Shown: one piece after another, positions 6,351 through 36,042 of the stretch | Layout of the letters: every line of letters begins with the position of its first letter | How positions within the stretch are numbered: the stretch's first letter is position 1 | Source: Chrysochromulina tobinii | Lineage: Eukaryota | DNA length: 36,444 nucleotides | Assembly (NCBI GenBank): GCA_001275005.1 | Contig: JWZX01003333.1 | Location: 1-36,444, forward strand | Direction of reading: 5' to 3' | Translations under genes and position numbers: made by a program | Notes under the pieces: generated by a model | The model's input: only the letters and a program-made list of their open reading frames with translations | Database searches by the model: none | What the model was told of the DNA's origin: nothing

Positions 6351-6353
6351 TCA
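6311..6353 (-). promoter_or_regulatory. Putative UGA readthrough signal: stop codon, 7 nt spacer, 14 bp stem-loop
   Basis: Minus strand reads TGA GAAATTG CCAGCCC-A-GGCAGCG-ATC-CGCTGCC-G-GGGCTGG, and gag and pol are in the same frame. Confidence 0.65.
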
Positions 6354-12591: not shown

Positions 12592-15500
12592 ATGGTCCTC
12601 CATTGCATGCATTCGAATTCTTTACGAACCTGCCCGTTGATTTCGAGGAAAGTTGCGTCATCGCTCTCGGCCCAGTGCACAGGCTGCTGCTGCTCGAGTT
12701 GCCTCCCTCCCGTGGGCAAAATGCCTCCAGTGGGCAAATTGCCTCCCGTGGTCGCACACACAGCCCCGTCCGTTGGAGGAGATTGCCCATACATCCTGGT
12801 GACTGGTGCTGGCGAGGCGGCCGTCAACGGATTGTACGCGCTCGCCGCTCTCGCCAACGAACGGCCCACTTGGAAGGCGCTCACAAACGACGACGCTATC
12901 ATCCAATTCAATACGGCCGCCGAGGCGGACGGCTGGTTTGGCGCGGGCACGGGTGCCATCTACGCCATCGTGGACAAAACGCACAAGTACATCGCCAAGG
13001 ATACGGCCAGCACGGGCCTGCGCTCGCCGCCAACCACTGGCTTCGTCGCACGCTCGAAAAAGGTCAAGGAGCCCGCCCCGACGCTCGCGTGTGCCGCGGT
13101 GGCTCCCTCGTGCGCGCGTGCCCGCGCCATCGCATCGGGGCTCCCGTTTGCGTCGGGCGCGCTCTTCACGCGCAGCAGCTCCCTCGTGCCTCGGACAACG
13201 TACACGCACGCGCTCGCCGCCGGACAGGCGACGCTGAGCTGGCAGGACGCAAGCGCGGCGACTCGCGGGGCCACCGGCGGCGGCACGAGCGGCGGCGCCG
13301 CATGGCTGCTGATCGCGCCGGACGCTGTGAGCGGTCAGCCCCTGGCGCTCTTGAGCGCTCCTGATGCACTCTCGCGGGCGCTAGGCCCGCCTGTGAACAA
13401 TTGGATCCCGCGACCGAGCAAGCACAAGCCGAACAAGGGTGAGGCTCCTCCATCTCTGCGCCTTGAGTGCGCGTGCGGCGCGGCGCATTTCGAGTCGGCC
13501 GAGGCGCTCGGGTACCTTCCACGCTCGTCGAGCTGCGCACGCGAGTGTACGCAGGCGCCTGCGAGTAGCGCTTGCCTTGGCTGCCTGTGCGTGGCTTGCG
13601 GTGTGTGTCCGCCGCCGCCGCCGCCGCCGCCTGCGCCGCCCTCGCCGCCGCCGCCGCCACGAGATCCTTCGCCGCCGCCGCCGCCGCCGCAGCCGACGAG
13701 CCAGACGCTGCTCGCGACGGGCTTCGAAGATGGAGGCGGAGGTGTCGAGGTCTCTGACTCGGGCGGCGGCGGTGGCGGCGTGCTCATGCACGAGATGCCC
13801 TCGCGTGCGGCGAAGCGAATGGGAAGCTACGGCTTACGGCTCGAGGTGCGCATGGCCTTTGAGGCCTCCCTAATTGCCACCCTAATTGCCTCCCTAACTG
13901 TGCCACCTCCTTTTTGCTCCCCAATTGCCTCCCTCCTCCCTAATTGCCTCCCTAATTGCCTCCCCCATTGCCTCCCTAATTGCATGCAGGTGCGCAAGGC
14001 CTTTGAGCCGGCGTACAAGGGCAAAGTTCAGCTGGGCTCCTTTTTGGTCGCGGGGGGCTTCACGCTCCTAACGGTCTCGCTTTGGGTTCGCGCCGAGGAC
14101 GGCGCGCAGCTGCCCTTGCCCAAACTAGACGTCCTCGACGCCGATGAGGGCTATGAGTGGCTCGGATCGGCCGAACCCTGCCTCGTGTCGGCGACCGAGT
14201 GGCGGCAGTGCTCGGCGACCGTGGCGCTCGATACGGCGCGTAGGGGTCACGCACTCGAGTGCAATCTGGTCGTGGGCGGTCACGTGGGCGTTCTGTACGT
14301 GGACGACATCCTCGTCGTCCAATCGATCGCATCGCCACCCAGCCCGCCGACCCCGCCGCCGCCCGCCCCGCCCCTCGATCCGATCCTGCGCATCGAGACA
14401 TTCGAGACCTCGAGCGTGCAGCCGTGGCCTGCGCCTGAGGTGGGCTCAGCCGAGGCGGCGCTCTACAGCCGCCTCGCGGCCCCCGTGCACGCGCGCACGA
14501 TCGTCGCTAGTGATGGTAAGGAGGGCAAGATGGTCGCGGAGATCCCGTCGGGCGGCGGGCGGCCGCCCTCCAAACGCGCCGCGCGGATTGACGTCCAGTC
14601 AGTCTACCGGCCCGCCTGGCGCGCGCGACTGGAGCTGGGCAGGTACGTGGTGCAGCTGAGCGAGCTCCGAGTGCGACTGTGGGGGCGTGCCACCAGGCAC
14701 GTCGAGAGGGGCGATGGCAGGCGGTTGGACGGCGACGATGGCAGGCGGTTGGATGGCGACGATGGCAGCGACGATGGCAGGCGGTTGGACGGCGACGATG
14801 GCAGCGACGATGGCAGTGGTGCCGGCGCCGGCGAGAATGTGCGCGTGACGATTGACGTGACCGACGAGTCCGTGGGCGGCGAGTGGGTGGGCTCTGCTCA
14901 GCCGTTGTACTTTGGGCCCGTGTGGAAGGAGCACACGGTGACGGTGGTGCTTGACACAGCGCGCTCGCTCCACGTGCTTTCGCTGGCTCTGATCGTCGGT
15001 GGGACGGCGGCGGAGTATTGGGTGGACGATGTGGCCATCGAGCAGGCCGTGCCGCCCCGTGGGCTGCGCGAGGGGATCCTGTCCATCGGCTTTGAGGAAG
15101 ATGAACCTCATGACGCCGCGGACGGCGGCCTCGCCATCGTACGCCACCCAGCTGCCCCCGCAGGCGCCCTCCCTTATAGCCGTTCGACTCTCGCGGCTCC
15201 GCTGAGCACCGCCGACCGGATGATCGTACCGCCCGCTGTCGGGCCTACAGGAAGCCGTTGCGCCAAGCTCGTGGTCGAGCAACCGGCCGAGCCGCCCTGG
15301 TACCCGAAGCTCGGATGGCGCCTGATTGCATGCTGATTGCATGCTGATTGCACGCTGATTGCATGCTGATTGCATGCTGATTGCATGCTGATTGCATGCT
15401 GATTGCCTCCCTCATCAGGTACCTGAAGCTCCGGCTCGGAACCTTCCGTGCCGCGAACCAGATGCTTCACGTGGCGCTCACTGCACGGCTGGAGGCCGAC

Positions 15501-18500
15501 GGCGGTGTCGGCGAGTCGCCGCAGCCAAGCCGTCACCACCATCACGGCCGGCGCAGCGCAGAAGTCGCCGCCTCCGCGTCGAATGACGTGCCCCCGTTTT
15601 TCACCGTCGACATCGTCGATGGCGCAGATTGGATCGGGAGTTGGGTGCACTTGAACCTGAGCTCGAGCGCCTGGCAGCGGTACGAGGTCTCGGTGCCACT
15701 GCCCTTTTCGCGCCGCGGCCACTTTCTCGACGTCGCTGTGGTCGTTGGCCATCGGGCGGGCACGTACCTGATCGATGACGTGAATGTCACCCAAACGCTC
15801 GCGCCGCCGCCGCCGCCCGCACCCCCGTCGGTCGCCTGGGGTGCCACTTACGACTTTGAGAGGTTGCCCAGGGTGGAGGGGGGCGCCATGGCCGTGCGTC
15901 TCATCACGTATACGCCCGAGGCGGCTGCGGGCGCGAGTGCGGACCTCTGTGCCTCGTCCGCCGGGCGCGCGGGTGGGCACGGCGCCATGATCACCGTCAG
16001 CCGGGCGCCAGCTCAGCCATGGCATACGCGGATCGGTCTCGGGCTCTTTGAAGCACAACGCGCGGCACTGGTCCTCAAATTCTCCGCCAAGCTCGCGTCG
16101 CCCGCCGCGGGCGCTCAGCTCACGCCGCCACCGCCGCCGCCGCCCTTCCCGCCGCAGCCGCCTCCCTCTGGTCTAGCCATGCCATGCACGAATGCACACG
16201 GCCCTACGGATTCCAAGGTCGAGAAATGCATGGGCTGGTGCACCGAAGGGGCCGCCTCCCAGCGTTCACAGCGCTGTGCCTATTGCAAGTGCCGCCAGTG
16301 CCCGGCATGCCTGGCGGCAGCGGCCACGGGTCCCTTTCTAACGGTGAGCGTCACCGACGCCGACAACGCCTCCGAGTGGCTGGGCTATTGGCAGAGACTC
16401 AACCTGAGCTCCGCCGAATGGCGACAGTTTAAGGTGACGGTGCCGCTCTCCGCCGCCAAGCGCGGACACACGCTCGAGACTTCGATCGTTCTCGGGCACG
16501 CGGCCGGCGTGTACCTGATCGATGATGTCTCCATCTACCAGACGGACCCGGTCGCGCTCGCTCTCCAAGTCGGATTCGAAGAGCCCGACGCCGCCGTCGT
16601 CGCTGTGGGCACAGGTGGCAGTGTCGCTGTGCCGGTGGCCGGGGGCGGCCTGATGACGGCCAATCTCGCCTCTGAGGCGGCGGCGCACGGCGGCGGCAAG
16701 GGCGCCGAGGTGGTGATCCGCGAGCTGTTCACACCAGCCTGGCAGGGGCGTCTGGAATTAGGCACGATCGTAGCTACCCTCAATGCGCTCACCATTCGCC
16801 TCTGGGGACGCGCGAGTCGCCCCGCGCCCATCCACGCCAATCTCATCGACAGCGCGGCGGCCTACGAGTGGTTGGCGTTTTGGGAGCCTCTCAATCTGAC
16901 GAACCACTGGGCAGAGCACTCAACTGTCGCGCCGCTCGACCCTACGCGCCGAGGACATCGACTCCAAATGTCCCTCGTGATGGGTGCCATCGCCGCCACG
17001 TACTCACTCGACGACATTTCACTCACGCAGAGCTGTGAAAACTGGCCGACGCCCTGGCTGCCGCCGGCGCCACTCGGCTCACTCTATACGGGCTTCGAGG
17101 ACTGCACTGGTGCTATCCCCCGGATGGACAGCGCCACGTCGAGCGGCGGCGCCCGGTACAGCGCGACGTCGGGCGGCGGCGCCCGAGACAGCGCGACGTC
17201 GGGCGTCGGTAGCAGCGGTGGCAGTCCGATCGCAGCAGAGCTGTACGCGCCCATGGCGGCGCGTACCGGCCAGCTGGGGATGAGGCTCAAGGTGCGGCGC
17301 CACCTGCATATTGATGAGGAGCGACCCAAGCTCATCCTCGGCAGCTTGATCCTGGCGGACGCGTCGCGCGCTTCGGATGCAATCCTTCTGTCGCTCTGGG
17401 CCAAGATGCAGGTGTGCAAGCAGACACCGTGGAACGCCTCTGAGCGCCACTCAGTGTCATTGAGTGCCCTTGGTAGTGTGCCCTTGGTAGTGGGTGCCAC
17501 AGTGGTCCAGTGCCACGGAGAGCCTAGAGTCCCTTGATTGCCGCTTGAGCTCCCTTGATTGCCCATTGATTGCCCATTGATTGCCCATTGATTGCCCATT
17601 GATTGCCCTTGATTGCCCATTGATTGCACTTGATTGCCCCTTGATTGCCCCTTGATTGCCCTTGATTGCCACGGAGAGCCTCCGAGTCCCACACCCCTTG
17701 ATTGCCGCTGATGAGCGCCAAGTGACCCCCGATCGTTCTTCCCACAGCCCGGCGAGACGGCGGAGCACGGCGAGACACCTCCGTCGATCACCTTCGAGCT
17801 ACTCGACGTCAACCAATCGTACACGTGGATTGGGCACTGGCGTGCGTGCAACATGACGCACGGGCGTGCGTGGACCAAATGTGCTGCCGAAGTCCCCATC
17901 ACGCCAGCTCTCGCGCTGCACGTGATTCAAGTGAGCATCCTCTTTGGAGCGGTACGCGCCTCGTATCTCGTCGATGATCTCGCCGTCGAGCTCTGATGAG
18001 CTCTGATGACCTCTGATTGCCTCCCTCATCAGGTACGCGCCTCGTATCTCGTCGATGATCTCGCCGTCGAGCAGCGCTCTCGTTCGAGCAGCGCCGCCGC
18101 GAGCCGCTCGTATGTGCTCCTGTCCGAAGGCTTCGAAACCGCCGCAAGGCCGCCCAAGCCGCTCGCCTACGGTGCGCATCTCGAGGCGCGCATGTGCATG
18201 CATGCATGCATGCATGCATGTGCTCACCACGGCGCCCGGTGTTCCCCACAGGTGCGCATCTCGAGGCGCGCATGTCCGATGGGGGGTCGGCGATAGCCGC
18301 GGGCATGCATGCCGACTTGCATGCCGCCGACGCGGCGCATGCAAGGCATGGGAGCAAGGCGGGCGCGCAGGTGCGCGTGCCGGCGCGCCTCTCCCCCCAC
18401 CAGCAGACCCTGAGCATGCATGTGCTCATCACGGCGCCCGGTGTTCCCCACAGGTGCGCGTGCCGATGCTTCCGCCGGCGGCGGGCGGCGGCGGCGCACG

Positions 18501-20557
18501 CAAGCCGCTGCTCGCGCTGGGCAAGTTTCACGCGGTCGCGGGCACGTTGCGCGTGGCGGTTTGGGCGAGGGCGGGCGCCGTCGCGGGCGCCACCGCCAAG
18601 GATCTCGCGCTCGGCCTCGAGGTGCTTGACGAAACTGACGAATTCCGCTGGCTCGGGAGCGCCACGACGGCGCCTGTGGGCAGCGCGTGGAAGAAGCTTA
18701 GTATGGAAGTGGACGTGGCCGAATCGGTCGATGGACACCTGCTTGACGTGTCCCTCACGTTTGGGGGCGGAGGCAATTACGATCTCGACGACCTCGAGAT
18801 CACGTGCCCGGAGCGCGCGCTGTCCACAATCCTCAACGTGACGTTCGAGACGAGCGACGCAGTGACCCTCGCCCCGCGCGTCGCCGCGGGCGCCCAATAC
18901 GACGCGCTTCGCACGGCGCTCACGCTCGACGCGCCCATCGCCGGCGCCGGGCGCGCGTCGGCCCACGGCGCCGTGCTGGGCGTCTCTCAGCGCTTCGTCA
19001 ACCCGAGCGATGCCAAATTACGCCTCATCAGGGTGAGCGCCGTTCCGGGCATCCTCAACGTCTCCCTGTGGGTGAAGCTGGCGGACGCGTCCTCTGTAGC
19101 CAGGCTCATCAGCAGTGGCGGCAGCGACAGCAGCGAGACTGGCAGCAGCAGCGGCGGTAGCAGCAGCAGCAGCAGCGGCGGTAGCAGCAGCGGCAGCAGC
19201 GGCGGTAGCAGCAGCAGCAGCAGCGGCGGTAGCAGCAGCGGCAGCACGGGCAGCGGCAGCACTGGCGGCAGCAGTGCAGCTTCGAAGAAGAAAAAGAGCT
19301 CGTCATCAAGCTCCCACAGCTCGTCATCATCAGGCTCATTAGCCAGCCACGGGCGCGAGCTGCTGGCAACGGCGAGCGGCGGCGCCAGCGCCGGCAAGGG
19401 CGGCAAGGGCGGCGGGTCGGCGCCCGGGGCGGCGCCGTCCGGTCCATACGTCAAGATCGAGGTCCTCGACGAAACTGCGGACTTCGAGTGGCTCGGCGCG
19501 TGGATGACGTTCGCCATCAGCGCCTCCGAATGGACGCGCATCGAAGCCATCATTCCCATTCACACCTCCCGTGCCGGCCATTCGCTCGACGTGGCGCTGG
19601 CAGTGGGAGCTGCGACTCCGGGGATACTGCTCGACGACATCGTCATCGCCGCCCCTTCGCTCGTGGGCGCCGGCGTACCGGTCAAGGCGCTGAGCGTCGG
19701 CTTCGATGATGTGGCAAGCACGCGACACATTGGCGTCATCTACTCGGGGGGCACCCCTGGCACCCCTACCATCCTCGGAGGCGGCCCCCATGTACGCTTG
19801 CAGCTGAGCTCTGATGACCTTTGATTGCCTACCATCCTCGGAGGCGGCCCCCATGTACGCTTGCAGCTGAGCTCTGATGACCTTTGATTGTCTTATTGAT
19901 GGCCTCTGATGGCCTCTGATCACCTCTGATCGCCCCTTGATTGCCTCTGATTGCCTCTGATTGCCCTCTGATCGCCTCCTTCATCAGGTGCGCGTGCAGC
20001 TGAGTTCCCCACACGCCGCCCGCACCGGGGTCGCCGGCGCGATGTTCAACGTGCTCGAACCGGTCGGCGCGCCCGCGACGGCGCGCCTGGCCATCTGCAC
20101 CGTCGTCAGCGCCATGCCGGGCGCCCTCAAGGTTGCCTTTTGGGCGCGAACGCCCGAACGGCATCCGGCGCCGCGCCTGGCAGTGGACTTTTTGGATGCG
20201 AGTGACGGCTGGCACTACCTCGGGTTAGCCGATGACTTCCGGCTGAGCACCACGTGGCAGCGCTTCGAGGTCTCCATCCACTTGGGCGCGAGTCGGGTGG
20301 GCCATAAGATCGAGGTGGCGTTACAACTTGGCCGAGCAGCAGAGAACCCTAATTGCCCCCTAATTGCCTCCTAATTGCCTCCTAATTGCCTCCTAATTGC
20401 CTCCTAATTGCCTCCTAATTGCCTCCAGGTGGCGTTACAACTTGGCCGAGCAGCAGGTGTCATCCTCCTCGATGATCTCGAGGTCTGGGGGCCTCGCTCG
20501 GCCGACGGGTACCCGCCGCGCGCCATGCCGCCGCTGCTGCCCGAGCCGGAACCCTAA
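12592..20557 (+). CDS. ~2270 aa repeat protein with about eight galactose-binding-like/CBM-like beta-sandwich modules and Pro-rich or Ser/Gly linkers; 9 exons
   Basis: Exons 12592-13845, 13990-15299, 15419-17411, 17748-17951, 18033-18171, 18252-18370, 18454-19791, 19988-20314 and 20429-20557 join with consistent phases at GT-AG sites. The recurring module is GFE...LWxR...YEWLG...WxxxxVxxxL...GHxLxxxLxxG...YxxDDxxI. The start codon is uncertain (12592 or 12721). Confidence 0.75.
13846..13989 (+). other. Intron (144 nt): exon-duplicated 5' end and (CCTAATTGCCT)-type repeats
   Basis: Starts GTGCGCATGGCCTTTGAG; the next exon starts GTGCGCAAGGCCTTTGAG; ends ATGCAG. Confidence 0.85.
14710..14818 (+). 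repeat. Coding tandem repeat (GDDGRRLD / GDDGSDDG)
   Basis: Repeated GACGATGGCAGGCGGTTGGAYGGC units within exon 2 of the large gene. Confidence 0.85.
15300..15418 (+). other. Intron (119 nt): exon-duplicated 5' end, (CTGATTGCATG)n array, family A 3' end
   Basis: GTACCCGAAGCTC versus next exon GTACCTGAAGCTC; ends GATTGCCTCCCTCATCAG; splicing restores PPW-YLKLRLG. Confidence 0.88.
17412..17747 (+). other. Intron (336 nt) with an internal (TTGATTGCCC)n array
   Basis: CAG|GTGTGC...TTCCCACAG|CCC restores WAKMQ-PGETAEH; the array is flanked by two copies of TGCCACGGAGAGCCT..GAGTCCC. Confidence 0.8.
17952..18032 (+). other. Intron (81 nt): perfect 40 nt duplication of the next exon, family A 3' end
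   Basis: 17952-17991 equals 18033-18072; ends CTGATTGCCTCCCTCATCAG. Confidence 0.9.
18172..18251 (+). other. Intron (80 nt): 24 nt duplication, family B 3' end
   Basis: GTGCGCATCTCGAGGCGCGCATGT at 18172 and 18252; ends GCATGCATGTGCTCACCACGGCGCCCGGTGTTCCCCACAG. Confidence 0.88.
18371..18453 (+). other. Intron (83 nt): 12 nt duplication, family B 3' end
   Basis: GTGCGCGTGCCG at 18371 and 18454; ends GCATGCATGTGCTCATCACGGCGCCCGGTGTTCCCCACAG. Confidence 0.88.
19112..19340 (+). repeat. Coding Ser/Gly low-complexity linker
   Basis: (AGC)n/GGC repeats encoding SSSGGSSSSSSGG. Confidence 0.85.
19792..19987 (+). other. Intron (196 nt): degenerate exon duplication, internal ~62 nt re-duplication of the donor junction, family A 3' end
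   Basis: GTACGCTTGCAGCTGAG versus next exon GTGCGCGTGCAGCTGAG; ends CGCCTCCTTCATCAG. Confidence 0.82.
20315..20428 (+). other. Intron (114 nt): 28 nt duplication and (CCTAATTGCCT)n array
   Basis: GTGGCGTTACAACTTGGCCGAGCAGCAG at 20315 and 20429; ends GCCTCCAG. Confidence 0.88.
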
Positions 20558-20907
20558 TTGCCTCCTAATTGCCTCCGAATCGCCTCCTTATTGCCTCTTA
20601 ATTGCTCGAGCCGGAACCCGCGGCGTCGGGGCAGTTGTGAGAGAGCGGCGCCGCGAACTCGCCGCCTTTCTGACGCATGTGGAACGATGCCTGGATGATT
20701 GCGTTATGCCTGGATGATATCTATGTTTGTTCCTCTAAGACGTCCTAATAGCGCGAGCTCTAGCGGTAGCACTACGAGTACGTTTACGATAAGCCGTCGA
20801 GTCGATGCATGGCGTGCATGGACCATGTGGACCGCATGGTGCCCGTCGGTGCGGGTGTGCATTGCGTTGTGCACATTGACACAAAAAATACACTCTTCGG
20901 GGCGACC

Positions 20908-22746: not shown

Positions 22747-23481
22747 TCACTTCTTGGCGGCCATCAGCCTCGTCACCTTTGAGGCAATCTCCATCTTCTC
22801 CTCGGCATCAAGCTCACGCCCGAGGACCTCCTCTTTGTTCTTAATCGAGGCCTCTATCAGGCCTTCGAGCGTGAGCGGCACCTCCGACACGGACGAGGAG
22901 CGTGTCGACTCGCCTACACTCTTTCGGGGCGCGGCCGCGACGGCCACCGGAGCCGGTGCCGGCTCGTCACCGGAGAGCACCTTCGCCAGCAGCGGCTTCA
23001 CCTCCTCGTCTCGACACACCTTGCCGCCGAAGCCGTCCGGCTTCAGCTTTTTGCAACCCGCCACGGGCGACGCCGGCTTCGAGCCAGGCGGTTCCATGTC
23101 CCCATAGTTGCGTTTCTTGAACTGCAGAAGAGCGGAGGAGGCGAAGCGTGTCGGGACCCATGGACAATGAGTGTGTTCACCGGAGTGGCAGCTGGAATAT
23201 TCCTTTGCAGAAAGGGCTCGCTGACAGAAGGTTTCACTGGCAGTAGGCTTCAGAGGCTGGGTCCGGGACCGCTGTTTCCATGCATGCCTTCATGTGCATG
23301 CTCCAGAAGGCGGACACACCTGCACCTCCCCTCGATCGAGAGGATTGACGATTGCAAACGATGGGGCGATGGGTGCGAGGGCTGCGATGCATCCGCCTAT
23401 GGCGGCGCGTCGGCCGACGCCAAGCTGCAGGCCACTGGCAGTGCCGATCACGACCAAAAGTCCGAACAAAGTGCGCAACAT
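22747..23481 (-). CDS. Small, probably plastid/thylakoid-lumen-targeted protein; exons 23481-23320 and 23121-22747
   Basis: Signal peptide MLRTLFGLLVVIGTASG, then an RR-hydrophobic-SFA segment resembling a Tat signal. Intron 23122-23319 (CAG|GTGTGT...TTCTGCAG|TTC) joins EVQ-FKKRNYGDMEPP in frame. Confidence 0.7.
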
Positions 23482-23654
23482 TTTATTGCCGCACCTCGCC
23501 GAAATCTCGGTGCTGGACTGACGAAATCTGAATGTTTTGGGTTGAGGGAAGAAGCGGAGGACAGTGGCACGAAAGCTTCACGCACTTACATTAAGTGCTT
23601 CGAACAAGTCTCCACCAAAGATGGTCATATGCAGACAGGTCTGACAGGACGCAA

Positions 23655-26035
23655 ATGCTGAGCCTCGAGCGCCGGCTTTCGGCGCAGCTGAGCTTCGACG
23701 ATAGCAAGCAAAAGATCCTCGCGGCGCTGCTCGCCGATAATGAGGACCTGCGCAAGCAGAACATCTAGCTCGAGATGGAGAACCGCCGGCTGCAGCACAC
23801 GCTCGACCTCGAGGAACGCCGCCAACCACGAGATGGCGTCCGCGAATCTGTTTTCGGACGCGTACGATTGGATCGTGGACATCCAGCTGCTTTCCGACGT
23901 GTCCAAACAGGGCTGGAAGGTCCAGTTCTCGGGCGAATTCCTCGCCGGCCTTGACAAGGCCGAGCGCGCACAGGTGCTCTCGCAAGGCAAGTGGACTGCC
24001 GAGGACGGCGCGCAGAGCACGGATGGCTTCGGGCAGCCGCCGGCGTCCGCGTGGCGCGGTGCCATCGTCGCCGTGCTCGGCCTGTACGACAAGGGCAAGA
24101 CCTTCGTGCTCAACAACATCTCGAACGCGAAGCTGCCCTCGGGCAAGAAGGTGGCGACCAAGGGCCTCTCCTTCAAGCACGTCGACTGATTGCATGCTGA
24201 TTGCATGATGAGTGCCTCCCTCATCAGGTGGCGACCAAGGGCCTCTCCTTCAAGCACGTAGAGGTGTCCGGCGGCACCAAGTTCATCCTGCTCGACTCGG
24301 AGGGCTCGTTCTCACCGGTCAAGGTTTCGAATGAGCTCTCGGTCGTCGAGAAGGAGGCCACAGAGCTCTTCCTACAGGAGCTCATCTTCGAGATGTCGGA
24401 TTACTTCCTGTGCGACGGATTGCGTCTGATGGCGTCTGATGGCGTCTGATGGCGTCTGATTGCGTCTGATTGCGTCTGATTGTGTGTGATTGCCTCTGAT
24501 TACATCTGATTGCCTCTGATTACGACGAGTGCTTCTCCTTGCCGCTGATTGCATCGGATTACCTCTGATTGCCTCTGATTGAGATGGATTGCCACCGATC
24601 GACTGCAGGTGCGTCGTCAACGACTTCACCTCGCTTGACCAGCGCTATCTCGACAAGTTGACACGCAATCTCCAAAACTCCAAAAAGGACTTTCGCGAGG
24701 TGATCGTGGTACACAACTGTAAGGAGGTCATTGACGAGGATACACTCCGATACGTGTGGGAGACGCAGGCGACTGCCATCTATGGCAGCGGCACGCCGCA
24801 GACGACGCTTGTAGCCGCGACCGACCCGGCCACGAACACCCTCGTTGAGAAAGCCGTGGGCTGGTTCAAGACGCCCTTTTCCCGCCACGTGCTCCTCGCG
24901 AACTCAGACTCCGATCTCGGAGAGAATCTCAACCCGTGGGCCTTCTCCTTGCTGCGCTACTGGCTCAAGAGTGAGCTGTTGATGACCTCTGATGACCTCT
25001 GATGGCCTCTGATGGCCTCTGATGGCCTCTGATGACCTCTGATGACCTCTGATGACCTCTGATGACCGCTCGTCTCAAGAGTGAGCTGCTGATGAGCGCT
25101 GATGAGCTCCGATGGTCGTTGATGGCAGTTGATGGCCGCTGATGACCTCCGATGGCCGCTGAGCGCCACCGATCGCCCCATAGGCGTCTTCATCCCCGTC
25201 GCTCGCGATTTCTCGGTCGTCGACGCGGTGGTGCACTATTCGAATCAGAAGCTCGCCACGCACTTCAAGACGCACCCGCAGCTGGCGCTCACGCACACAG
25301 AAGAGGCAGGTACAGAAGGGCGCGTCTGGTACATCCGCTCGCACTCGGAGGCTCCGGAGCGATTGCGGCTTCATCAGCTGTCCGTCGATGCTTCCGGCAT
25401 CATGCTGGCGCGTCCGGACTCGTACCTGCCGCCTGTCGACATCGTGCGAGAGCCGGACGCGTACAACATCTACATGGACCTGCCCGGCATGACGCGTGAC
25501 CAGGTGAAGCTCTCCCGCCAAAACGTGGTGACCATCGTCAAGGCCGTCGAGCTGCATGCAGGTGCTCACCGCGGCGCCCGCCCCTCTTCCCCACAGGTGA
25601 AGCTCTCCCGCCAAAACGTGGTGACCATCGTCAAGGGTACCCGGGAAAGTGGCCTGTCAGACCGTGAGATCGCAACCTCGGTCACGCGCCAGGAGCGCAA
25701 GGCAGGAGAGTTCACGATGACCTTCCGGATCCCCGAGGAGTATCAGGTGAGATTGCCTCTGATTGCCTCTGATTGCCACTGATGGTCTCTGATTGCCTCT
25801 GATTGTCTCTGATTGCCACTGACCTTTCGGATCCCCGAGGAGTACCAGGTGAGATTGCCTCTGATTGTCTCAGATTGCCTCTGATGGTCTCTGATTGCCA
25901 CTGACCTTTCGGATCCCCGAGGAGCAACAGAGACGATGGGAGTCGGCCGACATGGAGAATGGCGTGCTGCGAATCAGATACCTCAAGGACGAGGAGGAGG
26001 AGGAGGGCAAGGGCGAAGTTAATCCTATTGCATAG
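23655..26035 (+). CDS. P-loop GTPase-like domain fused to a C-terminal HSP20/alpha-crystallin domain; 6 exons; the 5' coiled-coil part has an in-frame TAG (23766) and a frame discontinuity (~23815)
   Basis: VAVLGLYDKGKTFVLN (Walker A), TKG, LLDSEG, VVHN; then PPVDIVREPDAYNIYMDLPGM...ERKAGEFTMTFRIP...MENGVLRIRY (HSP20). Exons end at 24150, then 24228-24409, 24609-24970, 25184-25503, 25597-25746, 25931-26035. Alternative ATG at 23833. Confidence 0.8.
24151..24227 (+). other. Intron (77 nt): perfect 32 nt duplication, family A 3' end
   Basis: GTGGCGACCAAGGGCCTCTCCTTCAAGCACGT at 24151 and 24228; ends GTGCCTCCCTCATCAG. Confidence 0.9.
24410..24608 (+). other. Intron (199 nt) made of (CTGATKGCST)n decamers
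   Basis: CT|GTGCGACG...ACTGCAG|GTGCGTCG restores DYFLCVVNDF. Confidence 0.85.
24971..25183 (+). other. Intron (213 nt) with (CTGATGRCCT)n and an internal copy of its own donor junction
   Basis: CTCAAGA|GTGAGCTG at 24964-24978 recurs at 25074-25088; the acceptor CCCATAG|GC restores WLKSVFIP. Confidence 0.83.
25504..25596 (+). other. Intron (93 nt): perfect 40 nt duplication, family B 3' end
   Basis: 25504-25543 equals 25597-25636; ends GCATGCAGGTGCTCACCGCGGCGCCCGCCCCTCTTCCCCACAG. Confidence 0.9.
25747..25930 (+). other. Intron (184 nt) whose 3' end copies the upstream exon end
   Basis: GACCTTYCGGATCCCCGAGGAGYAHCAG occurs three times (ending 25746, 25848, 25930); splicing restores EEYQ-RRWESADMENG. 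Confidence 0.83.
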
Positions 26036-26659
26036 GGCGGCAGCGCTCCCCGAGCATCGTCTATGAAGCCTGCAAGCAGCAAGAAGATGCCCTTGCCGCG
26101 CACTAATCCGGCCTGAGGCATTCCGCGGGCACCGCAAGCAGGTCGTACGTTACGTAGTAGACGCGTCAGTACGTAGTAGAGTTTAGGCAGGCATTGAGTT
26201 TGAGATGCATCGTGTACTGTACCACACACATAACCCGCACACCCGAAGGGAACGTAAACGGAACGCCGCACGGCCATGTGCCGTCCGGGAGCCATGCCGG
26301 GAGCGTGCACCTTGCACCTTGTCCTTGACGCTTGAGAGACCTGACTCATAGTCATACAGACTTTCATGTTGAGCCCGGTGAGCGGACGGGATCTAGACGG
26401 AAGGATGATGCATGCGAGTTGAGTTTGTTGCATACGGCAACACCACCGGTCGACGCCTGCAATGTGGGTTTTCGAGGTGTGCCAAACAGTATACATGGAC
26501 GGGACTGAAATGAAACGAGTGTGAACGTCTACGAGGTGTGAAACGTGTCAAGTCAAGCCTATACATAAACAACAGACAACCGTACGAAAGCCTAACTGCA
26601 GTACTTGACTTGACTTGACAAGTGTTAAAAAGAGGTGTTAAGTCTGTCCGGAGGTGTTA

Positions 26660-28571
26660 ATGCCTGTCGTGCCGCTGCTTGCGGCTGCCTTCCTCCTTGG
26701 ACATGCCATCTGGCCTGCCGCCGCGAGCTGGACCAGGCACGAGGTGTTCCTCACCTGGGCTCGCCAGCAGGGGCTACGCCTTGGACCCGTTTGCATTGTG
26801 CCCTCGACTCTCGGCGGCTTCGGTGTTTTCGCGGAACGCGACATTGCACTCGGGGAAATGGTGTTTGCCGTGCCGAAACGATTGCACGTGGGCTTGAAGG
26901 CAGCATTAGCTGACCCAAGCTGAGGCGCAGAGTTTGAATCTCGCGTCGAGGATGGCAATGCTCTTGGCGTGCTGTGCGCGTTTCTGGCCAAAGAGGCCTT
27001 GTGCAGCGACGGAGCCTTCAAACCGTACATCGACACCCTGGACTTGACCGTCGCAAATCCCGACTATGTGCAGTTCTGGACCGAGGAGGAGGTGGATCTG
27101 CTCTCCGGCACCGCCGCGTACCAGATCGCTTTGGACGTGCGGGCCGAGGCCGAGGACGTCGTCAGGTTTGCGCTCAGTCTGGATTCCCTCCGGAGGTGTG
27201 TGCATCAGGACCTATCGGCGCGAGGTGTACCGATGGACGCGGCGGTAGTCGAGGAGAGGATCGCGACGTGCGTCCGCCGCGCACACGCCGCGGTGCTCAG
27301 CCGCTCGTTTGACGACCTGAGCGACTTTGGCGCGCGGGAGATGATCCCTCTCCTCGACGTGCTGCAGCACGGCAAGCCGCCGTCCGTTCAACATCGAACG
27401 AAGGGGTCCGTGGACTTTGAACAGCCCGTGGATTGGACGGAGTGGGCTGATGAGGATGGAAGAGATGAGTGGGAGGAGGCGGCTCTCTCAGAGCCCTGTC
27501 TCGTCGCTCGCACGCGGCGATCTGTAGCCGCAGGTGAGCTCATCTTTTTTGGCGACCACCCTGAGTGCCTCCCTGAAGACCTCTCTGAGTGCATGCTGAT
27601 TGCCTCCCTCATCAGGCGAGGAACTACTCAACTTTTATGGAGACCACCCACATTTTGTGTTTGCGATGCACTACGGATTTGTGCCAAAGGTCGGTGTGCC
27701 TGCAGGCGTGCCTGCAGGCGTGCCTGCAGGCGTGCACCAAATGGCGACGTGCGTCCTGAACCTCGAGGGCGTCGCGGCGAAGATGGGCAGGACGATGGGC
27801 CCCGCCATCGCCTTGGCCGCGCAGTCGCGTGCGCTCGAGCTTTCGGACGACTGGACGCCTGACGACTTCGATGCGCACGACGACGATGCCTACCAGGGAG
27901 GGAGCGGGACGGAGCCGGCGCCGATCGAAGTGGAAGATGGGCACACATTCTTGGCCCATGTGCTCGCAGATGCTGCGCTGTGGATGAGGCTGCCCGAGCT
28001 CACCTTCTTCGTGAGCGACGAGCTCATTGAGCTCGCAATCTCTGAGGCCGAGATTGGCCGCTTGCCGTCGAACCAGTACGGCGCGGCGGCGCTCGTGGTC
28101 TGTGCGCGGCTGTGCGCGCTCGATGGGAGGACCCTCGAGGCCGTCGGCGGCCAGCAGACCGACCCGAACGAACAGCTCGAGGTGTGGGCACGTCCTCTGC
28201 CTCGTGTGCGCATGCAAGTGCTCACGACGGCGCCCACCTCCCCACAGGCCATGTTTCGTCAACTCCTCGACTCGGAAGATGGGCGGCTCTCGGCCGAGAA
28301 CGACTGGTTAGCGGCCTCGTTGCTCAGGGAAGCCGCGAGGGAGCGGCTGGCCGTGTGCCACGAGCCGCATGGGTGGCTATCCCAGGCGATGATGACGGCG
28401 AGGGAGGCTGGCGGAGCACCAGCACCACGGGAGGCGTGCGTTCGGCTGGCACGCGAGGTGCGCGAGGCGGAAGTGCTCGTCCTCGAACGGCTAGCGCATG
28501 GAGATGTCGCCGAGAGGATGTTCACCACACCCGAGATGCGACTGAATCGTGCAGCACAAACGCAAACGTAA
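26660..28571 (+). CDS. SET-domain protein lysine methyltransferase (Rubisco LSMT/SETD3-like) with a signal peptide; exons 26660-27533, 27616-28181, 28248-28571; in-frame TGA at 26921-26923
   Basis: GGFGVFAERDIALGEMVFAVP, FKPYIDTL, FWTEEEVDLLSGT, VLSRSF, MIPLLDVLQH and AGEELLNFYG...YGF. Confidence 0.85.
27534..27615 (+). other. Intron (82 nt): diverged exon duplication, family A 3' end
   Basis: CTCATCTTTTTTGGCGACCACCC in the intron versus CTCAACTTTTATGGAGACCACCC in the next exon; ends CTGATTGCCTCCCTCATCAG. Confidence 0.87.
28182..28247 (+). other. Intron (66 nt, in frame), family B 3' end
   Basis: GAG|GTGTGG...GCATGCAAGTGCTCACGACGGCGCCCACCTCCCCACAG|GCC. Confidence 0.8.
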
Positions 28572-28637
28572 CTGAGCTGTTCGTGGCGACCTTCCAAGAA
28601 AAGTAATATTGTTTACTAATTTTCGCGCACTGTTGCT

Positions 28638-28711
28638 AGTTTGAGAAAGGGTCAGTTGAATCGACACACAAGGCGAGTTTGAGAAAGGGTCAGTTGAATC
28701 GACACACAAGG
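28638..28711. repeat. Intergenic 36 bp perfect tandem duplication
   Basis: AGTTTGAGAAAGGGTCAGTTGAATCGACACACAAGG at 28638-28673 and 28676-28711. Confidence 0.9.
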
Positions 28712-28895
28712 TACCGACCAGCCACTACCACGCGAAACACTGCCACGCAGTGGTCGCGTCGCTCGGTGGACTAACACACCGGCGAGGATTTTTAAGGATC
28801 CGGCCCCCACCCCCGTCCCGGCCACGCGGCGAGTTTGTGCAGCTTCACAGATTGCTTCACAGCCAAATTGGTTTCTTCGGAGTCGGGGAAAATCG

Positions 28896-30074
28896 ATGCG
28901 ACTCCACAATTGGACGGAGATCCTCGCTCCTCTGGGCGAGGTACACAGTCTGGGGCACAGACGTCCGTTTCCGTGGAAAACTTCAACGCCATGCACATCA
29001 CGTGCAATCAGCCGCTCCGCCACGTCCGACGAGGGTTGGCATTGTGTTTGCAAGGCATCCCACCCCATGTTTCGGCACGTGCCCACATACCCGAAATCAC
29101 GACGTGCAGAAGAGGAGGAGTCTGTGTTTATGGCGGTTGCAAACACCACGGCACGCGTGCGTGCGACTGGTCTTCCGTTATGTCCGGAGGGTCTGGCGTT
29201 TAACGCGTTCGCACTCACAGAGGACGTTGCATGCCAAAAGCATCTGCCTGTATTCCAGCTCTTCGCATCAGCCGCGCGCTCTGAATCCCCACATGTTCGA
29301 TCCCAACCAGAGCTCATCAGAGAGTGGCTCGGCAACGCCCGGCCCTGGAGCTGGGACTGCGAGGCCAACACTTACACGGCTCCATACGCGGCGAACGTGC
29401 CAAGCCGCGCCGTGGACTGCTTGCGTGGCGACTCGCCACGCGGCGTGGATTTACCGACTGTCGATGAGGAGTACTTTGAGCTCGCGGACGCCATGATGGC
29501 CGTCGCATCGGCTGACATTGGAGGCAAATTCATCGTCGTCGAGGTTGGAGCCCGTTACGCGCCGTGGGCAGTGCGTGCCATGACCGCGGCGCGAATCTTG
29601 GGCCGCTCGCGCTCCTGGTTTGCCGTTGTGGTCGAGCCGGAGGCGCTACATGTCGCGTGGCTGAGGCAGCACTTTGCCATGAATGGGTTCGGGCCCGATA
29701 CGTACCGGGTCATTCAAGCACCATTCGACCGCGCGCCTCGAGGCGTCACACTCAACGAAACTTTACGTGGCCTCGAGCACGTCGACTTTCTCGACATGGA
29801 TGCGCAACGAGGCGAAATGTTCTTGGTGCAGAGCGCTGCCGATTCCGACGCCCTGCGCCGCGTGCGCCGCGTGCACATCGAAGGCCATGCTGACCACATC
29901 TCGGAGCATGTGGTCAGCACCCTGGAACGGCATGGCTTCAATGTGGTGCGTAACGCGAGCGCGCGTGTCTTCGACGTGTACCACTCCGCGGCCATGGGGC
30001 GCATGCAATTTCGCGGCGCCAGCATCTTCGGCGCGAACCGTCATTCGGCCAATACATGTCTTGGTATGTGTTGA
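28896..30074 (+). CDS. FkbM-like SAM-dependent methyltransferase (start uncertain)
   Basis: IVVEVGARYAPW, VVVEP, VDFLDMDAQRGE, VRRVHIEGH and LERHGF match the FkbM/Methyltransf_21 pattern. Confidence 0.75.
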   Translation: MRLHNWTEILAPLGEVHSLGHRRPFPWKTSTPCTSRAISRSATSDEGWHCVCKASHPMFRHVPTYPKSRRAEEEESVFMAVANTTARVRATGLPLCPEGLAFNAFALTEDVACQKHLPVFQLFASAARSESPHVRSQPELIREWLGNARPWSWDCEANTYTAPYAANVPSRAVDCLRGDSPRGVDLPTVDEEYFELADAMMAVASADIGGKFIVVEVGARYAPWAVRAMTAARILGRSRSWFAVVVEPEALHVAWLRQHFAMNGFGPDTYRVIQAPFDRAPRGVTLNETLRGLEHVDFLDMDAQRGEMFLVQSAADSDALRRVRRVHIEGHADHISEHVVSTLERHGFNVVRNASARVFDVYHSAAMGRMQFRGASIFGANRHSANTCLGMC

Positions 30075-30257
30075 GAGGAGGACACCAGTGACAGGTCAAG
30101 GCAGCGAGCGGGGGAAAGACGCATACCGGTACCGAATGATATGGAGAGATTCGATGGAGAGATTTTCGGCTAAGAGCTCGAGTTACCCTTCGACGCTGGT
30201 TCCCTTCATTGTTACTTTTCAGACACTTTGGCGCAGCGCGCACCGCTGACCGCCTCT

Positions 30258-31622
30258 CTACAAACTCCGTTGCGTGCACGCGCCCCTCATGAGCTTCCGA
30301 CGCAGGTCATCGGGTGGTAAGGGCTCCTCGTTGCGGTGGGGACGTTTCTTAGCGGCCCTCGCGGCCACTCCCAGCCGCGGCTCGCGCACGTCGCCCACAT
30401 CGGCCTCGTCCGCACATGCCGCCGCGCATGCCGCTGCACCGGTCGCACCGGGATCGCCTGTCGTAGGCAGACGCATTCCAAGTTTGGTCATCAGAGTGCG
30501 CGTGCGCTCGGACGCGATCTCGTGAGGCTCCAGATTGTGCTCGAGGGCGTCGCGCAGGGCGTCGCCGTCGAGTTCGAGGGTGAGAGGCTCCATGCGGCTC
30601 AGCGCACGAAGGGCAAGAGCGCGAGCGCTCGAGCGGCTCTGCGCATGAAGGCACTGCATTAGATCCGGTACAAAGTACGGCAGCTCGACCGTGGCCTCGA
30701 GCGAGTCCAAGGCGAGCAGAGCGCGCTTGCGCATCGTCTCGTCGTCAGACGACAGTCGCGGCACGAACCAATCGACCGCCCAGGTTCCCGCCGACCACTC
30801 CGGATTCGCTCGCCACGCCGAGCACGCGTCGCCGAGGACGCGGCGGGCACGGGCTCGCCACAGACGGGAGACGGCCTTGAGGTTGCGCAGGGAGCGCGCG
30901 TCGAGGTCAGCCAGGCAGGCGCCCCAGCAGTCGGCGTCGGACCTCACGAGGCCATCGGCAGTGTCCACCTCGACCTCGTCCTCAGCAGTCGGCGGCGTGA
31001 ACAACGGCTCGGCGAGCGCCTGCGCTCGCTCCTGTGGAGTCAAGTCATCTTCGGCCTCTAGGATGATCTGAAGCACTTGGCAGGATTTGCCTCGGAGCAC
31101 TTCGCTGATGGCGATGGTCGCCATGCGCGCGACCGAACGAAACTCCAAGAGCTGGGAGGCACGCAGCACGGCCATCCGACGCGGCAGCGACAGCCTCCGC
31201 AGCTTATCAAGGGCAGAAAGAGAGGCCGTCGTCGGCCTGGAGGTGAAGAAGCGCGACACAAGCGCGTCGGCGACTGCGACGAGATCGACGAGTGTCTGGG
31301 CCGGGGCGGCCACATGCACGCAAGGCGCCGAAGGATACATCGGAGCATCAGAGAGCGATGCCGTGGCGCGCGATAGACGCACGATCTTCCCATCTGATGA
31401 GATTACTTCCACGCTGTCATGCGTGACGGTCAGCGGCGTCGAGTCTGTGTACGTTGACAGCATCCGAAGCGGACCGGCGCGGGTGAGACAAGAGGCCATC
31501 TGGTCGTCCGATCGTAGCAGGAAAGTGGCCGGGCGCTCGCTCTCGGATTGTCGTTTCGCGCCTGACGAGCAAACCTCTCGTCTTCCCACTGCCCGCGGAA
31601 GCAGAAGTGCTCTCACAGCCAT
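30258..31622 (-). CDS. Skp1-like domain fused to an F-box-like motif and a HEAT-like repeat (start may be an internal Met)
   Basis: VEVISSDGKIVRLSRATA (Skp1 N-terminus); ASQLLEFRSVARMATIAISEVLRGKS...ILEAEDDLTPQE (Skp1 C-terminus); CWGACLADLDARSLRNLKAVSRLWR (F-box-like); VPRLSSDDETMRKRALLAL (HEAT-like). Confidence 0.7.
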   Translation of the reverse strand: MAVRALLLPRAVGRREVCSSGAKRQSESERPATFLLRSDDQMASCLTRAGPLRMLSTYTDSTPLTVTHDSVEVISSDGKIVRLSRATASLSDAPMYPSAPCVHVAAPAQTLVDLVAVADALVSRFFTSRPTTASLSALDKLRRLSLPRRMAVLRASQLLEFRSVARMATIAISEVLRGKSCQVLQIILEAEDDLTPQERAQALAEPLFTPPTAEDEVEVDTADGLVRSDADCWGACLADLDARSLRNLKAVSRLWRARARRVLGDACSAWRANPEWSAGTWAVDWFVPRLSSDDETMRKRALLALDSLEATVELPYFVPDLMQCLHAQSRSSARALALRALSRMEPLTLELDGDALRDALEHNLEPHEIASERTRTLMTKLGMRLPTTGDPGATGAAACAAACADEADVGDVREPRLGVAARAAKKRPHRNEEPLPPDDLRRKLMRGACTQRSL

Positions 31623-31822
31623 GGTAAGTGTCTTGCGGGACGCACTTCTGTTAGCTAGGTGGTTTCAAATAATATTGATGTGTAGACACTTAGGCCACGG
31701 TTGTTTAGGGGCCAGGTTTCGCGCAATGTCTGCAACGGTATTCCGAAACTGTTCCGAAACGTACTCATCCGTCACGCTCTAGAGTTCCACACTTCGTGTC
31801 CATTTATAATCAGAAACGAGTT

Positions 31823-34593
31823 CTAGTCCTCCTCAAGGTAGTAGACCTGCAGCCAGGCCATTTCGCCGTGATGGCCGTAGGTGTTGTTGGTGGTCGCCTC
31901 CGCGTACAGGTTGACGCCGCTGATGAGCGGTGGCGGCTCGAGACCGTGCTCACTCCGCCCCCAGACGCACGGGGGCTGGGCAATGTAGCCGGGCTCATCA
32001 TAGACCGTCCCCGCGAGGCGAGGGTCGCCCCGTCCGCCGTAGATGGGGCGCTCCTCGCACAGGAGCGTCTTGTTCTGGCAGCTCGTGTGCACGGCTGGGT
32101 CGCACGTGTAGAGCGAGATCGCGAGACATGTGGGCGCATGGCAGTGGAAGTTGGCCTTGACAAGCCGTTGGTGGGGCGACGTGGCCGACGGCTTCGGTTG
32201 GAAGATGCCCAGGCTGGTGATCGTGTGGTTGCACTGGGCTGTTGGCGTGCCAGGTGCGCACTGCGCGACGTCGTACTCGACCGGCGATCCGAGTCCCCAT
32301 GTATTCCGGTACCTGATCAGGGAGGCAATCAGGTGCCATCAGGTGGCACTCAGGTGCCATCAACGAGGCCGAGCCCTGATTGCGGGAGCCATCAGCAAGG
32401 CCGGGCCCTGATTGCGGGAGCCATCAGCAAGGCCGAGCCCTGACTGCGGGAGCTTACACGTTGGTGTGGAAGCTCGGGTCGTACGGCTGCACCCAGTAGC
32501 GGAACTTGAGCTGGTACTCGAGAGGCTGGTCAGCCCACGGCGTGGGTTGGTCCGCGTCGAGGAGGACCCACTCATGATGGCAGGCAATCTGGCCGCCAGC
32601 GTATGTGCGCAGATCGCACGCGGGGTTTTTCTCGGCGAGGGTATCCATCCGGGGCGGCGGCGCGCAGGTGTTGTCGAACCCGACCTTGCCTTTGCTACTA
32701 TTGGTCACGGGGTCAATGTACTCGAGCGTGCCCTTGGCAAAGCCAAAGGCGGGCTCGGGCGCGGGGCAGATGCACATTGGGGCCTCGAGTTGGAGCAGCG
32801 CAAGGGTCGTGGTGGTCTTCTGACTATGGTGGTCGAGCCCAAACGTCGGGCCACTCCCGATCGCGCTGATGATGCTCAGCAGGGACGCGTCGCCCTGAGC
32901 GTCGTCCTCCAAGCGGAACGAAAAGTGCTGTGGCGTCGTGCCGTTGAGTGGACGCTCGAGGACGAGGGTTCGCTTCCCATCGAGCACAGCGCTCGAGAGC
33001 ACCTTGATCGAGGGTTCAAGGAGCTCTCCGGCGGCGTGGTTGTACAGCCGACGCTCACTCACCTCCCCATCGCCCCCGCCCACGAGGATCGCGTACGGGC
33101 CGGTCGGGTCTCCAGGGGCACCACCGCCCATCGTAGTCGCATTGAACCCAACGCCAAACCACTCGTCGGCCGGGCCGGTGATGGTCAGGGTAGCTGTCTG
33201 GTTGGGCTCCGACAGGCTCACTTCAAGGTGCCAGCCGGAGAGGGCGCTGACGACGCCGGCCGCGCGCCGCTTGCCGGCATGGTCCTTGGCTTTGCCGCCA
33301 CATGGACTCGTAGGAGACTCGGGCGGTGCGGAATTCCATGTGGCAGCGCACGACACTGCGCCCGTGGCAGCGCCCGTGGCAGCGCCCGAGGCAGCGCTTG
33401 TGGCAGCGCTCGGCGTCAGCGTCAGGGCGCATCCGGCGGGGACCGTCTTCGACTCCACACTGTGAGTCGTCATCGAGGCGCCACACCTGATGAGGGAGGC
33501 AATCGGACTGATGAGGGAGGCAATCGGACTGATGAGGGAGGCAATCAGACTGATGAGGGAGGCAATCGGACGCCATCAGAAGCCATCATTTGACTCCACA
33601 CTGTGAGTCGGCATCGAGGCGCCGCACAGAGAGGAGCCAAGACCCTTGGCCGCCGCGAAGCACTCGGCCGCGCTCTTCGGACTCCCCACAGCCCCCTCGC
33701 AGCCACCGACTTGCCCAGAGCTGAGCGGCACGTAGCCCGCCTGTACATGCTTGATGATCCGAGAGGTCACTGGGCACTCTAGAAGGCCGCTGTACAGGAT
33801 GTCGGAGGGGGACTTGGGGGGCACGTTGCGCGAGCCGGGAGACGAGCGCCGACGCGGGCAGCGGCCCCGGCACGAAGGGAGTGGACCCATCCAGCGACAT
33901 CAGATCTCTGTTCCACGTGTCGATTTGCATCGGCGTGATGTGCCACGTCGTTGGCGACTCGATGACCTGAACATAGCCGGGGGCGTACCCGTGGAAACTC
34001 TTGCGGTACTCCCCGCCATTGGCGCCGCCAAAGTCCTGCGAGGTCGGAAGGGTCTTGCCCCCCACCTTGATGCCGGGCGAAAGCTCGCGTACGACCCATG
34101 CATAGTCCGCGGTAGTAGAGCCGTGCCCATGCCCGTGACGCCGAGGGTCGTCGGGGCCGCCAAGCTTGACCTTCTCCAAGACCGACTTGTTTCCCGTCAT
34201 GGTGCTCTCAAAGTGGTGGTTGTACGCCACGTTGATCGGCACCGAGACCTCCTCGCCAGTGGCCGTGCGCCGCACCTGGTTGGTCTCAAAGCCGACGACC
34301 GCCATGCCCTTTCCGGCGTATTTGGCGACGATGGCTTGCGGGAGCGGCACCGGGTCAAGCAGCGTCCAGAAAACCTCACCGTATGTCGACCGGATCATCG
34401 GCGAGTACAAGTCGAAAAATTCCACGTCTCCTGGGTAGTCCGAGAAGCGCTTGGGGAACTTGGACCCGGACTTGTCCGCACCGGGGGTTGCCGAGAGCGG
34501 ATAGTCGCCATTCATGTTCTCCGCCTTCGGCCCTTGTGCGGTGGTTGCCACGAAGAGGGAGAGGCCCAGCGACAAGCACAAGGTGCGAAGCAT
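31823..34593 (-). CDS. Secreted His-rich protein resembling a copper monooxygenase, with a DOMON-like domain; exons 34593-33628, 33486-32458, 32312-31823; frame discontinuity ~33838
   Basis: Signal peptide MLRTLCLSLGLSLFVA; YNHHF, CHH, FHCHAPTC and GHHGEM motifs; DOMON-like ATLTITGPADEWFGVGF. Confidence 0.7.
32313..32457 (-). other. Intron (145 nt) with ~33 nt internal repeats, family A 3' end
   Basis: GT|GTAAGC...CTGATTGCCTCCCTGATCAG|G restores HTNVYRNTWG. Confidence 0.85.
33487..33627 (-). other. Intron (141 nt): 36 nt duplication and four tandem family A acceptor units
   Basis: GTGCGGCGCCTCGATGCCGACTCACAGTGTGGAGTC versus exon GTGTGGCGCCTCGATGACGACTCACAGTGTGGAGTC; (TCYGATTGCCTCCCTCATCAG) x4. 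Confidence 0.87.
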
Positions 34594-35968: not shown

Positions 35969-36042
35969 CTGGACGGCCTCGAGTTTGGGGTCGGACGGAT
36001 GCAAGAATCCGGAAGGATACATGATACATGATGCATGATTCA

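Follow-up and report, generated by a model that had tools for sequence, protein, structure and literature searches.

Introns that share one 3′ end in unrelated genes of the haptophyte Chrysochromulina tobinii often begin with a copy of the start of the next exon. By a slight margin, we favour the view that these introns (family A) arose when a staggered break at a G|GT or G|GC site received a copy of an existing intron's 3′ end, with intron RNA as the probable template. The window, that is, the whole 36,444-nt stretch analysed, holds seven of them in four genes (Table 1).

The shared acceptor end

When the window was scanned with up to three mismatches, the 18-mer that forms the 3′ terminus of the seven introns matched 10 times, with 0.02 matches expected (shuffles: mean 0.02, maximum 1). 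The acceptors at 15418, 18032 and 27615 (plus strand) and 33487 (minus strand) match it exactly, and those at 24227 (plus, one mismatch), 19987 (plus, two) and 32313 (minus, one) inexactly. Three extra exact copies (33508, 33529 and 33550) are arranged in tandem within the intron 33487..33627 on the minus strand. All seven introns are GT..AG and sense to the host gene; the near-identical termini and the constant orientation described in the first-pass annotation were thus confirmed. Excision of the seven together with the other introns gave open frames of 2234, 525, 499 and 596 aa. Splicing of two of the seven is seen in RNA contigs, at 24151-24227 (77 nt skipped, GT..AG) and 27534-27615 (82-nt gap); frame restoration is the sole basis for the other five, and gene A is nearly without RNA cover.

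The shared block is no more than 20 nt long, beginning at the predicted branch A and ending with the AG. Among 78 non-exact copies, conservation peaked at A-17 (0.94) and fell to about 0.4 at -21. The 5′ parts of the introns are locus-specific, with no similarity along the whole element. Family A consists of introns with similar sequence in non-homologous genes (the four in the window, and 120 unique terminal sites outside it). In reverse complement, one repeat unit matches the last 7-8 nt of the tail; this inverted motif begins only 11 of 48 inserts, which as a class are not bounded by terminal inverted repeats. Unusual folding was seen in none of the seven pieces (z-scores of -0.94 or weaker), a viral contig scan returned 0 matches, and in an Rfam scan of the window no family overlapped the motif or the family-A introns. 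A hammerhead or snoRNA reading of the tail, suggested by the CUGAUGA core, is unsupported: the two weak Rfam matches lie elsewhere, off the motif.

Duplication of the next exon start

At 53 of the 120 independent terminal sites outside the window, the intron 5′ end is an in-register copy of the first 13-55 nt of the next exon (null for the 120 sites: mean 0.1, maximum 1). This copy, a feature overlooked in the first-pass annotation, provides the GT or GC donor. In 34 single-copy cases the duplication had a median length of 24 nt (range 13-55), was free of mismatches in 10, and was anticorrelated in length with the insert (rho -0.53, p=0.001, n=34), the foreign insert measuring 26-163 nt. AG precedes the donor in just 16 of these 34. 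Microhomology at the left junction was 1.26 nt versus 0.54 nt simulated (p=0.00015; 20 of 48 inserts scoreable). The 67 sites lacking a long duplication carry short matches in excess (at score 7, 12 against 1.6), and 59 of them likewise begin with GT/GC. Unique terminal copies outside the window are followed by G in 114/120 and by GT or GC in 107/120.

Pfam names could be assigned to few single exons. Of 84 clean 150-nt pieces lying downstream, a codon model that was itself accurate in 72 of 78 cases scored 76 as sense and 8 as antisense; the equal frequency in antisense or intergenic positions that the first-pass annotation had named as the contrary case was not seen.

The same plan is followed by a second acceptor family, family B (in-register duplication in 19/37, null 0.27), and by a mirror, donor-carrying class (8/51, null 0.02), the latter counted in a stricter search, given that the first mirror searches included ordinary tandem arrays. 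A repeat array at 20542-20619 has a 13-nt duplication and lacks the family tail.

Table 1. Introns and insertion sites in the window
Position	Strand	Feature	Basis
13846..13989	+	intron with 17/18 copy, CTAAT-type 12-nt repeats	frame restoration
15300..15418	+	family A; next exon start copied over 13 nt (12/13); 11-nt repeats and 20-nt tail	frame restoration only
17952..18032	+	family A; 40/40 copy of 18033-18072 at 17952-17991, followed by three 10-nt repeats and the tail	frame restoration; junction also read in P0144
18172..18251	+	family B with 24/24 copy	frame restoration
18371..18453	+	family B with 12/12 copy	frame restoration
19792..19987	+	family A; 17-nt copy (15/17), internal 63-nt duplication, 10-nt repeats	frame restoration only
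20315..20428	+	intron with 28/28 copy, CTAAT-type 11-nt repeats	frame restoration
24151..24227	+	family A, GTPase-Hsp20 gene; 32/32 copy of 24228-24259 at 24151-24182	RNA joint
25309..25310	+	empty CAG|GT site, apparently occupied by a family-A intron in allele P0112	inferred from protein N-terminus
25504..25596	+	family B; 40/40 copy of next exon start; missing in 8 near-identical alleles	RNA joint
25747..25930	+	mirror type carrying its own donor; the end of the upstream exon is copied (26/29) at its 3′ end	RNA joint, skips 184
27534..27615	+	family A; decayed copy of next exon start (20/23 local match)	RNA contig, 82-nt gap
28182..28247	+	whole-intron copy of a family-B intron of the unrelated RING-finger gene L073, with L073 exon letters	
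32313..32457	-	family A; duplication of ≤3 nt detectable; 32-nt and 10-nt internal repeats	frame restoration only
33487..33627	-	family A; 36-nt copy (34/36) of next exon start; tail four times	frame restoration only

A copied intron and differences among alleles

The intron 28182-28247 is an end-to-end copy of the RING-gene intron, with both ends within about 1 nt of the splice sites, and is the single case of a precise whole-intron copy; on its acceptor side, which is the side covered, RNA contigs resume at 28246. Since it was copied whole with RING-gene exon letters, existing introns serve as templates. Together with the 20-nt block and the several like families, this traced intron suggests that the template of family-A ends appears to be other introns. 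Of the sources offered in the first-pass annotation, the evidence supports a common template with an introner-like origin and does not favour a small RNA or a single retro-element end.

Presence and absence among alleles were read from proteins. In metagenome gene calls, eight near-identical alleles lack the intron 25504-25596, and the P0112 allele appears to carry its family-A intron at 25309|25310, a site that is empty in the window. At the level of called proteins rather than DNA, these empty sites would point to recent gain of both introns, with the caveat that partly spliced RNA is present in the same collection (P0115, P0121). No close intron-less allele of the 24151 intron was found among the longer proteins, and P0138, a distant relative at 66% identity, carries one at this site. 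Relatives P0145 and P0146 read through the site of the 17952..18032 intron. In the one aligned allele pair (L004/L006), introns were identical and the repeat number differed. Three DNA runs from lake or unspecified metagenomes, at 80% likeness, covered the repeats and almost none of the exons, and are uninformative on empty sites. We rejected an assembly artefact because the same arrangement is seen in many assemblies and P0144 independently reads the 17952 junction.

Proposed routes of intron gain

The inserts bear marks of target-primed insertion, namely a variable target duplication, a fixed 3′ end and a variable 5′ end with microhomology; duplications of variable length are a mark of non-LTR elements (PMC9977147). 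From the observed anatomy, splicing, sense bias and whole copy, the following steps may be proposed: (i) nicks on opposite strands, 13-55 nt apart, would leave 3′ overhangs; (ii) the GT-side end would prime synthesis on an intron 3′ end, as in target-primed reverse transcription, stopping after about 25-160 nt; (iii) the other end would be joined through 1-4 nt of microhomology, and fill-in would duplicate the target; (iv) the duplicate would supply the donor and the insert the branch point and AG, so that the mRNA would be unchanged; and (v) selection would retain sufficiently long sense inserts, the 10-11 nt repeats would vary through slippage, and every new intron could be a further template. 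Against this copying model, the mirror class (8/51) would not be expected from priming at a free 3′ end, selection alone could account for the precise ends of the whole copy, and the P0138 intron at the 24151 site, the 67/120 sites without long duplication and the 8/84 antisense calls also count.

Non-LTR and Penelope-like insertion (PMC9977147, PMC8557442) is alike in its variable duplication, fixed 3′ end, 5′ truncation and junction microhomology, but C. tobinii inserts have no element body, ORF or tail. A poly(A)-like or simple-repeat tail is absent at the primed end; the fixed end is the splice acceptor and the repeats are at the variable end. Intron transposition, fungal introner-like elements and tandem genomic duplication (PMC3443670) resemble the present case in that a whole intron turns up in a new gene, as with 28182-28247, and a splice site is drawn from duplicated exon sequence. 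Reverse splicing, however, leaves no long duplication, and the AGGT type of tandem duplication yields an entirely exon-derived intron; here the acceptor is foreign and AG is often missing before the donor.

The main rival to copying of intron RNA is DNA-templated break repair, which we regard as possible, though doubtful. A break with 3′ overhangs would be repaired by microhomology-primed copying of another intron's genomic boundary (polymerase theta-like templated insertion), and selection would keep spliceable products. Junction microhomology, the coexistence of acceptor-carrying and donor-carrying classes, and the tail-less 20542-20619 array agree with it, and breaks of this kind are described as yielding tandem duplications (PMC8355091). 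The whole copy ending at both splice sites and the AG at the right junction in all families argue against it. In Daphnia, the repair of staggered double-strand breaks is described as a source of new introns (PMC4202315): the adjacent exon end is repeated directly at the far end of the new intron, and new introns are polymorphic with internal repeats. The direct repeats in Daphnia, however, are only 4-12 bp and the insert source is mostly unknown, whereas here they are longer and the inserts can be recognised as intron ends.

It is improbable that family A comes from a single short non-autonomous transposon spreading from a master copy as a MITE- or SINE-like introner. The fixed 3′ end and the inverted repeat unit in the tail would suit such an element. 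Introners (PMC9860276, PMC12130899, PMC11282704) repeat intron sequence across unrelated genes, occur in marine Chrysochromulina sp. assemblies, and carry one splice site while co-opting the other, including the donor (PMC9860276), from a target-site duplication, with the mRNA unchanged. Their duplications, however, are 3-9 bp (4 bp, with a carried 5′ site, in the Chrysochromulina sp. example), against the variable 13-55 nt here. In C. tobinii sharing is limited to the last 20-40 nt and stops at -20 in family A, the template apparently being other introns; the scarcity of the inverted motif at insert starts, the weak folding and the similar behaviour of unrelated tails also speak against an element. 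The published introner screen from this work gives 0 families for C. tobinii.

Very improbable is an origin from old introns whose 5′ part was overwritten when aborted cDNA-mediated intron loss copied the next exon start into the intron: equal duplication and microhomology would be expected and P0138 has the 24151-site intron, but the shared tails, the GT/GC exon starts at 59/67 sites without long duplication, and the empty alleles and relatives reading through are left unexplained. Convergence on a strict species-specific splice signal is hardly credible, for although the block runs from a branch-like motif to AG with its strongest position at the predicted branch A, other introns of the same genes splice with unrelated tails, and the duplications and the copied intron are unexplained.

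The origin of new spliceosomal introns is a long-standing question, and for most new introns the source is untraceable. Young C. tobinii introns keep an insertion footprint and appear to be present in some alleles and absent from others; one of them identifies its parent intron. If pieces of introns are indeed pasted into new genes, this would be a traceable and ongoing route of intron making, and screens for whole-intron similarity may overlook gains of this kind, whose products have no more than their ends in common. In this small, culturable alga, RNA and DNA templates for intron copying can be told apart by direct tests. In its fullest form, which we put forward tentatively, C. tobinii might house an intron factory that feeds itself and needs no element: RNAs of spliced introns would be reverse-copied into nicked exons, whole, 5′-truncated or 3′-truncated, a target duplication of 13-55 nt would supply the missing splice site, and parent-child pairs in their thousands would be traceable by the exon letters of the parent gene.

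Introns with a shared 3′ end

At up to 2 mismatches, the family-A 18-mer matched the window 10 times, compared with 0.02 matches by chance. Seven copies form the ends of GT..AG introns in four genes, and the other three lie in tandem within the last family-A intron. The near-identical 3′ ends reported in the first-pass annotation for seven introns in four genes were thus borne out, and the intron-end feature is real. Removal of the introns left open frames of 2234, 525, 499 and 596 aa in the four host genes. In the GTPase-Hsp20 gene all five introns, family-A 24151-24227 among them, were spliced in one RNA contig, and the spliced protein matches KOO21802.1 of Chrysochromulina tobinii. The 82 nt of family-A intron 27534-27615 were absent from another RNA contig; the five other family-A introns of the window were defined by frame restoration. 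At 23824, one base was missing in four of four runs (compare gene call P0114); the N-terminal frameshift of GTPase-Hsp20 at this position probably stems from misassembly and makes the annotated protein too short.

The shared block extends from position -20 to the AG, with a CTGAT motif at its start. In 78 copies that did not match the search pattern exactly, among the matches listed, A-17 was best kept (0.94) and conservation fell to 0.41 at -21. From the branch consensus, we take A-17 to be the probable branch point. Upstream of the block, repeats of 10-11 nt echo the motif and vary from intron to intron.

Other features of the window
Feature	Coordinates	Strand	Description
Retrotransposon-like block	221-9100	minus	1493-aa ORF with YIDD and TDAS motifs
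CRAL/TRIO gene	9847-10878		single long ORF, without tail-type introns
DnaJ gene	11175-12422		single long ORF, without tail-type introns
2234-aa protein	12700-20554		repeated beta-sandwich-like domains, Pro- and Ser/Gly-rich linkers
Repeat array	20542-20619		13-nt direct-repeat flanks; near end of gene A; no family tail
198-nt intron, small gene	23122-23319	minus	RNA-spliced; without family tail or long duplication
Apparent frameshift	33850-33900	minus	between two long ORFs, family-A host gene
RelA/SpoT gene	34967-36103		single long ORF, without tail-type introns

The retrotransposon-like block is presumably of DIRS/Ngaro type; the ORF downstream of its 1493-aa ORF resembles a tyrosine recombinase, and DUF4326 was the only Pfam name given. 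The repeat array reflects either a non-intronic insertion supplying the stop codon or a candidate intron (20509-20610). The 2234-aa protein had no Pfam match, and the repeats of its gene differ from each other in intron positions.

Exon duplications at intron ends

In 10 of the 18 window introns examined, the first 12-40 nt repeat the start of the following exon in register; in one, the last 29 nt repeat the end of the preceding exon. Among the seven family-A introns, five carry this duplicate of the exon start, one has it in decayed form and one lacks it.

Metagenomes scanned for exact matches to the 18-mer gave at least 143 loci and at least 189 unique sites; 59 with another tail within 120 nt downstream and 10 with short flanks were left out, and 120 were kept. 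Among the matches listed, GT or GC directly followed the tail at 107 of the 120 sites, and a duplication of 13-55 nt was present at 53, compared with a shuffled mean of 0.1. The duplicate-plus-tail unit was itself repeated in 14 of the 48 listed duplication sites starting with GT/GC. In the remaining 34 single-unit sites listed, the median duplication was 24 nt, 10 duplications had no mismatch, and insert length decreased as duplication length increased. The 67 listed sites without a long duplication (59 with a GT/GC start) showed an excess of short matches and behave as older or shorter cases would. In L021:2501-2782, L068, L114 and L115 (metagenome loci) the unit is amplified up to 6-7 times, giving stacked potential splice sites within a single intron.

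Microhomology at the duplicate/insert junction exceeded the matched simulation across the 20 inserts, of 48, that were scorable, and a codon model placed 76 of 84 sites in sense, near its own accuracy (72/78); both results are among the matches listed. Family B (core GCATGCAAGTGCTCAC, end CCCACAG) had the duplication in 19/37 sites (null 0.27). The mirror class, with its own donor and a 3′ copy of the upstream exon, accounted for 8 of 51 candidate donors (null 0.02); it is represented in the window by intron 25747-25930, which RNA confirms. One donor-plus-branch cassette is common to four unrelated loci.

A copied intron and signs of gain

Intron 28182-28247 aligns end to end, with one mismatch and one gap, to a 65-nt intron of metagenome locus L073, and the host genes share no other sequence. 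Its first 30 nt duplicate L073's own downstream exon, which by its pattern encodes part of a RING-like motif; the intron was therefore born in the RING gene. As judged from this alignment, a single case, the RING-gene intron was copied whole to 28182-28247, at an AG|G site.

Intron presence or absence among alleles and relatives was read from proteins rather than DNA, in a collection that includes partly spliced RNAs. Eight gene calls share 97-99% identity with the protein of the window; all terminate in translated intron 25747 and read across the 25504-25596 site without its 31 in-frame residues; seven start within the translated tail of intron 24971. The eighth (P0112) starts with LHPSS, then GTEGRV; a tail variant found at least 6 times in the loci translates to LHPSS when read through, here at a CAG|GT site where the window has no intron. 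The 24151 site is read through in six further haptophyte-like gene calls, whose breaks lie elsewhere, but P0138 carries an intron at 24151. In the relatives P0145 (71% identity over the query exon) and P0146, four intron sites of gene A are read through, and the gene calls stop at other places, within intron-like stretches. The retained intron-like C-terminus of a relative (P0145/P0146) translates to a different repeat; this relative may have its own repeat-rich introns.

Possible mechanism and relation to introners

One scheme very probably covers all parts: a staggered break would leave 3′ overhangs, synthesis would be templated by the end of an existing intron, and joining by microhomology would be followed by fill-in. 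The donor would come from the duplicate, and branch and acceptor from the insert. An RNA template, favoured by the fixed 3′ ends, variable duplications and precise whole-intron copy, has a slightly better than even chance. The same scheme with a DNA template is less probable; the mirror class speaks for it, as does the fact that no reverse transcriptase is known here.

A further 40 or so near-match tails occur in the loci, which overlap, were selected by motif and total 257 kb; extrapolated to the 59-Mb genome given in PMC4580454, this suggests thousands of copies.

Introner splice sites are co-opted from 3-9 bp duplications (PMC9860276), and new Daphnia introns have exon repeats of 4-12 bp (PMC4202315). 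In a 2025 introner screen, C. tobinii has 0 families and Emiliania a family of 5 members with a co-opted 5′ site, noted with 10-bp terminal direct repeats (PMC12130899). The family-A motif was not found among 32 of the 214 Chrysochromulina mentions in the PMC9860276 supplement. The intron anatomy described here was not found in the literature searched, with subscription journals, bioRxiv supplements and the introner sequence repository outside the search. The suggested introner origin stands in part: the introns described here work in the same way, but they fail the whole-element, fixed-duplication and inverted-repeat tests. Their best reading is intron gain through insertion, in a new form.
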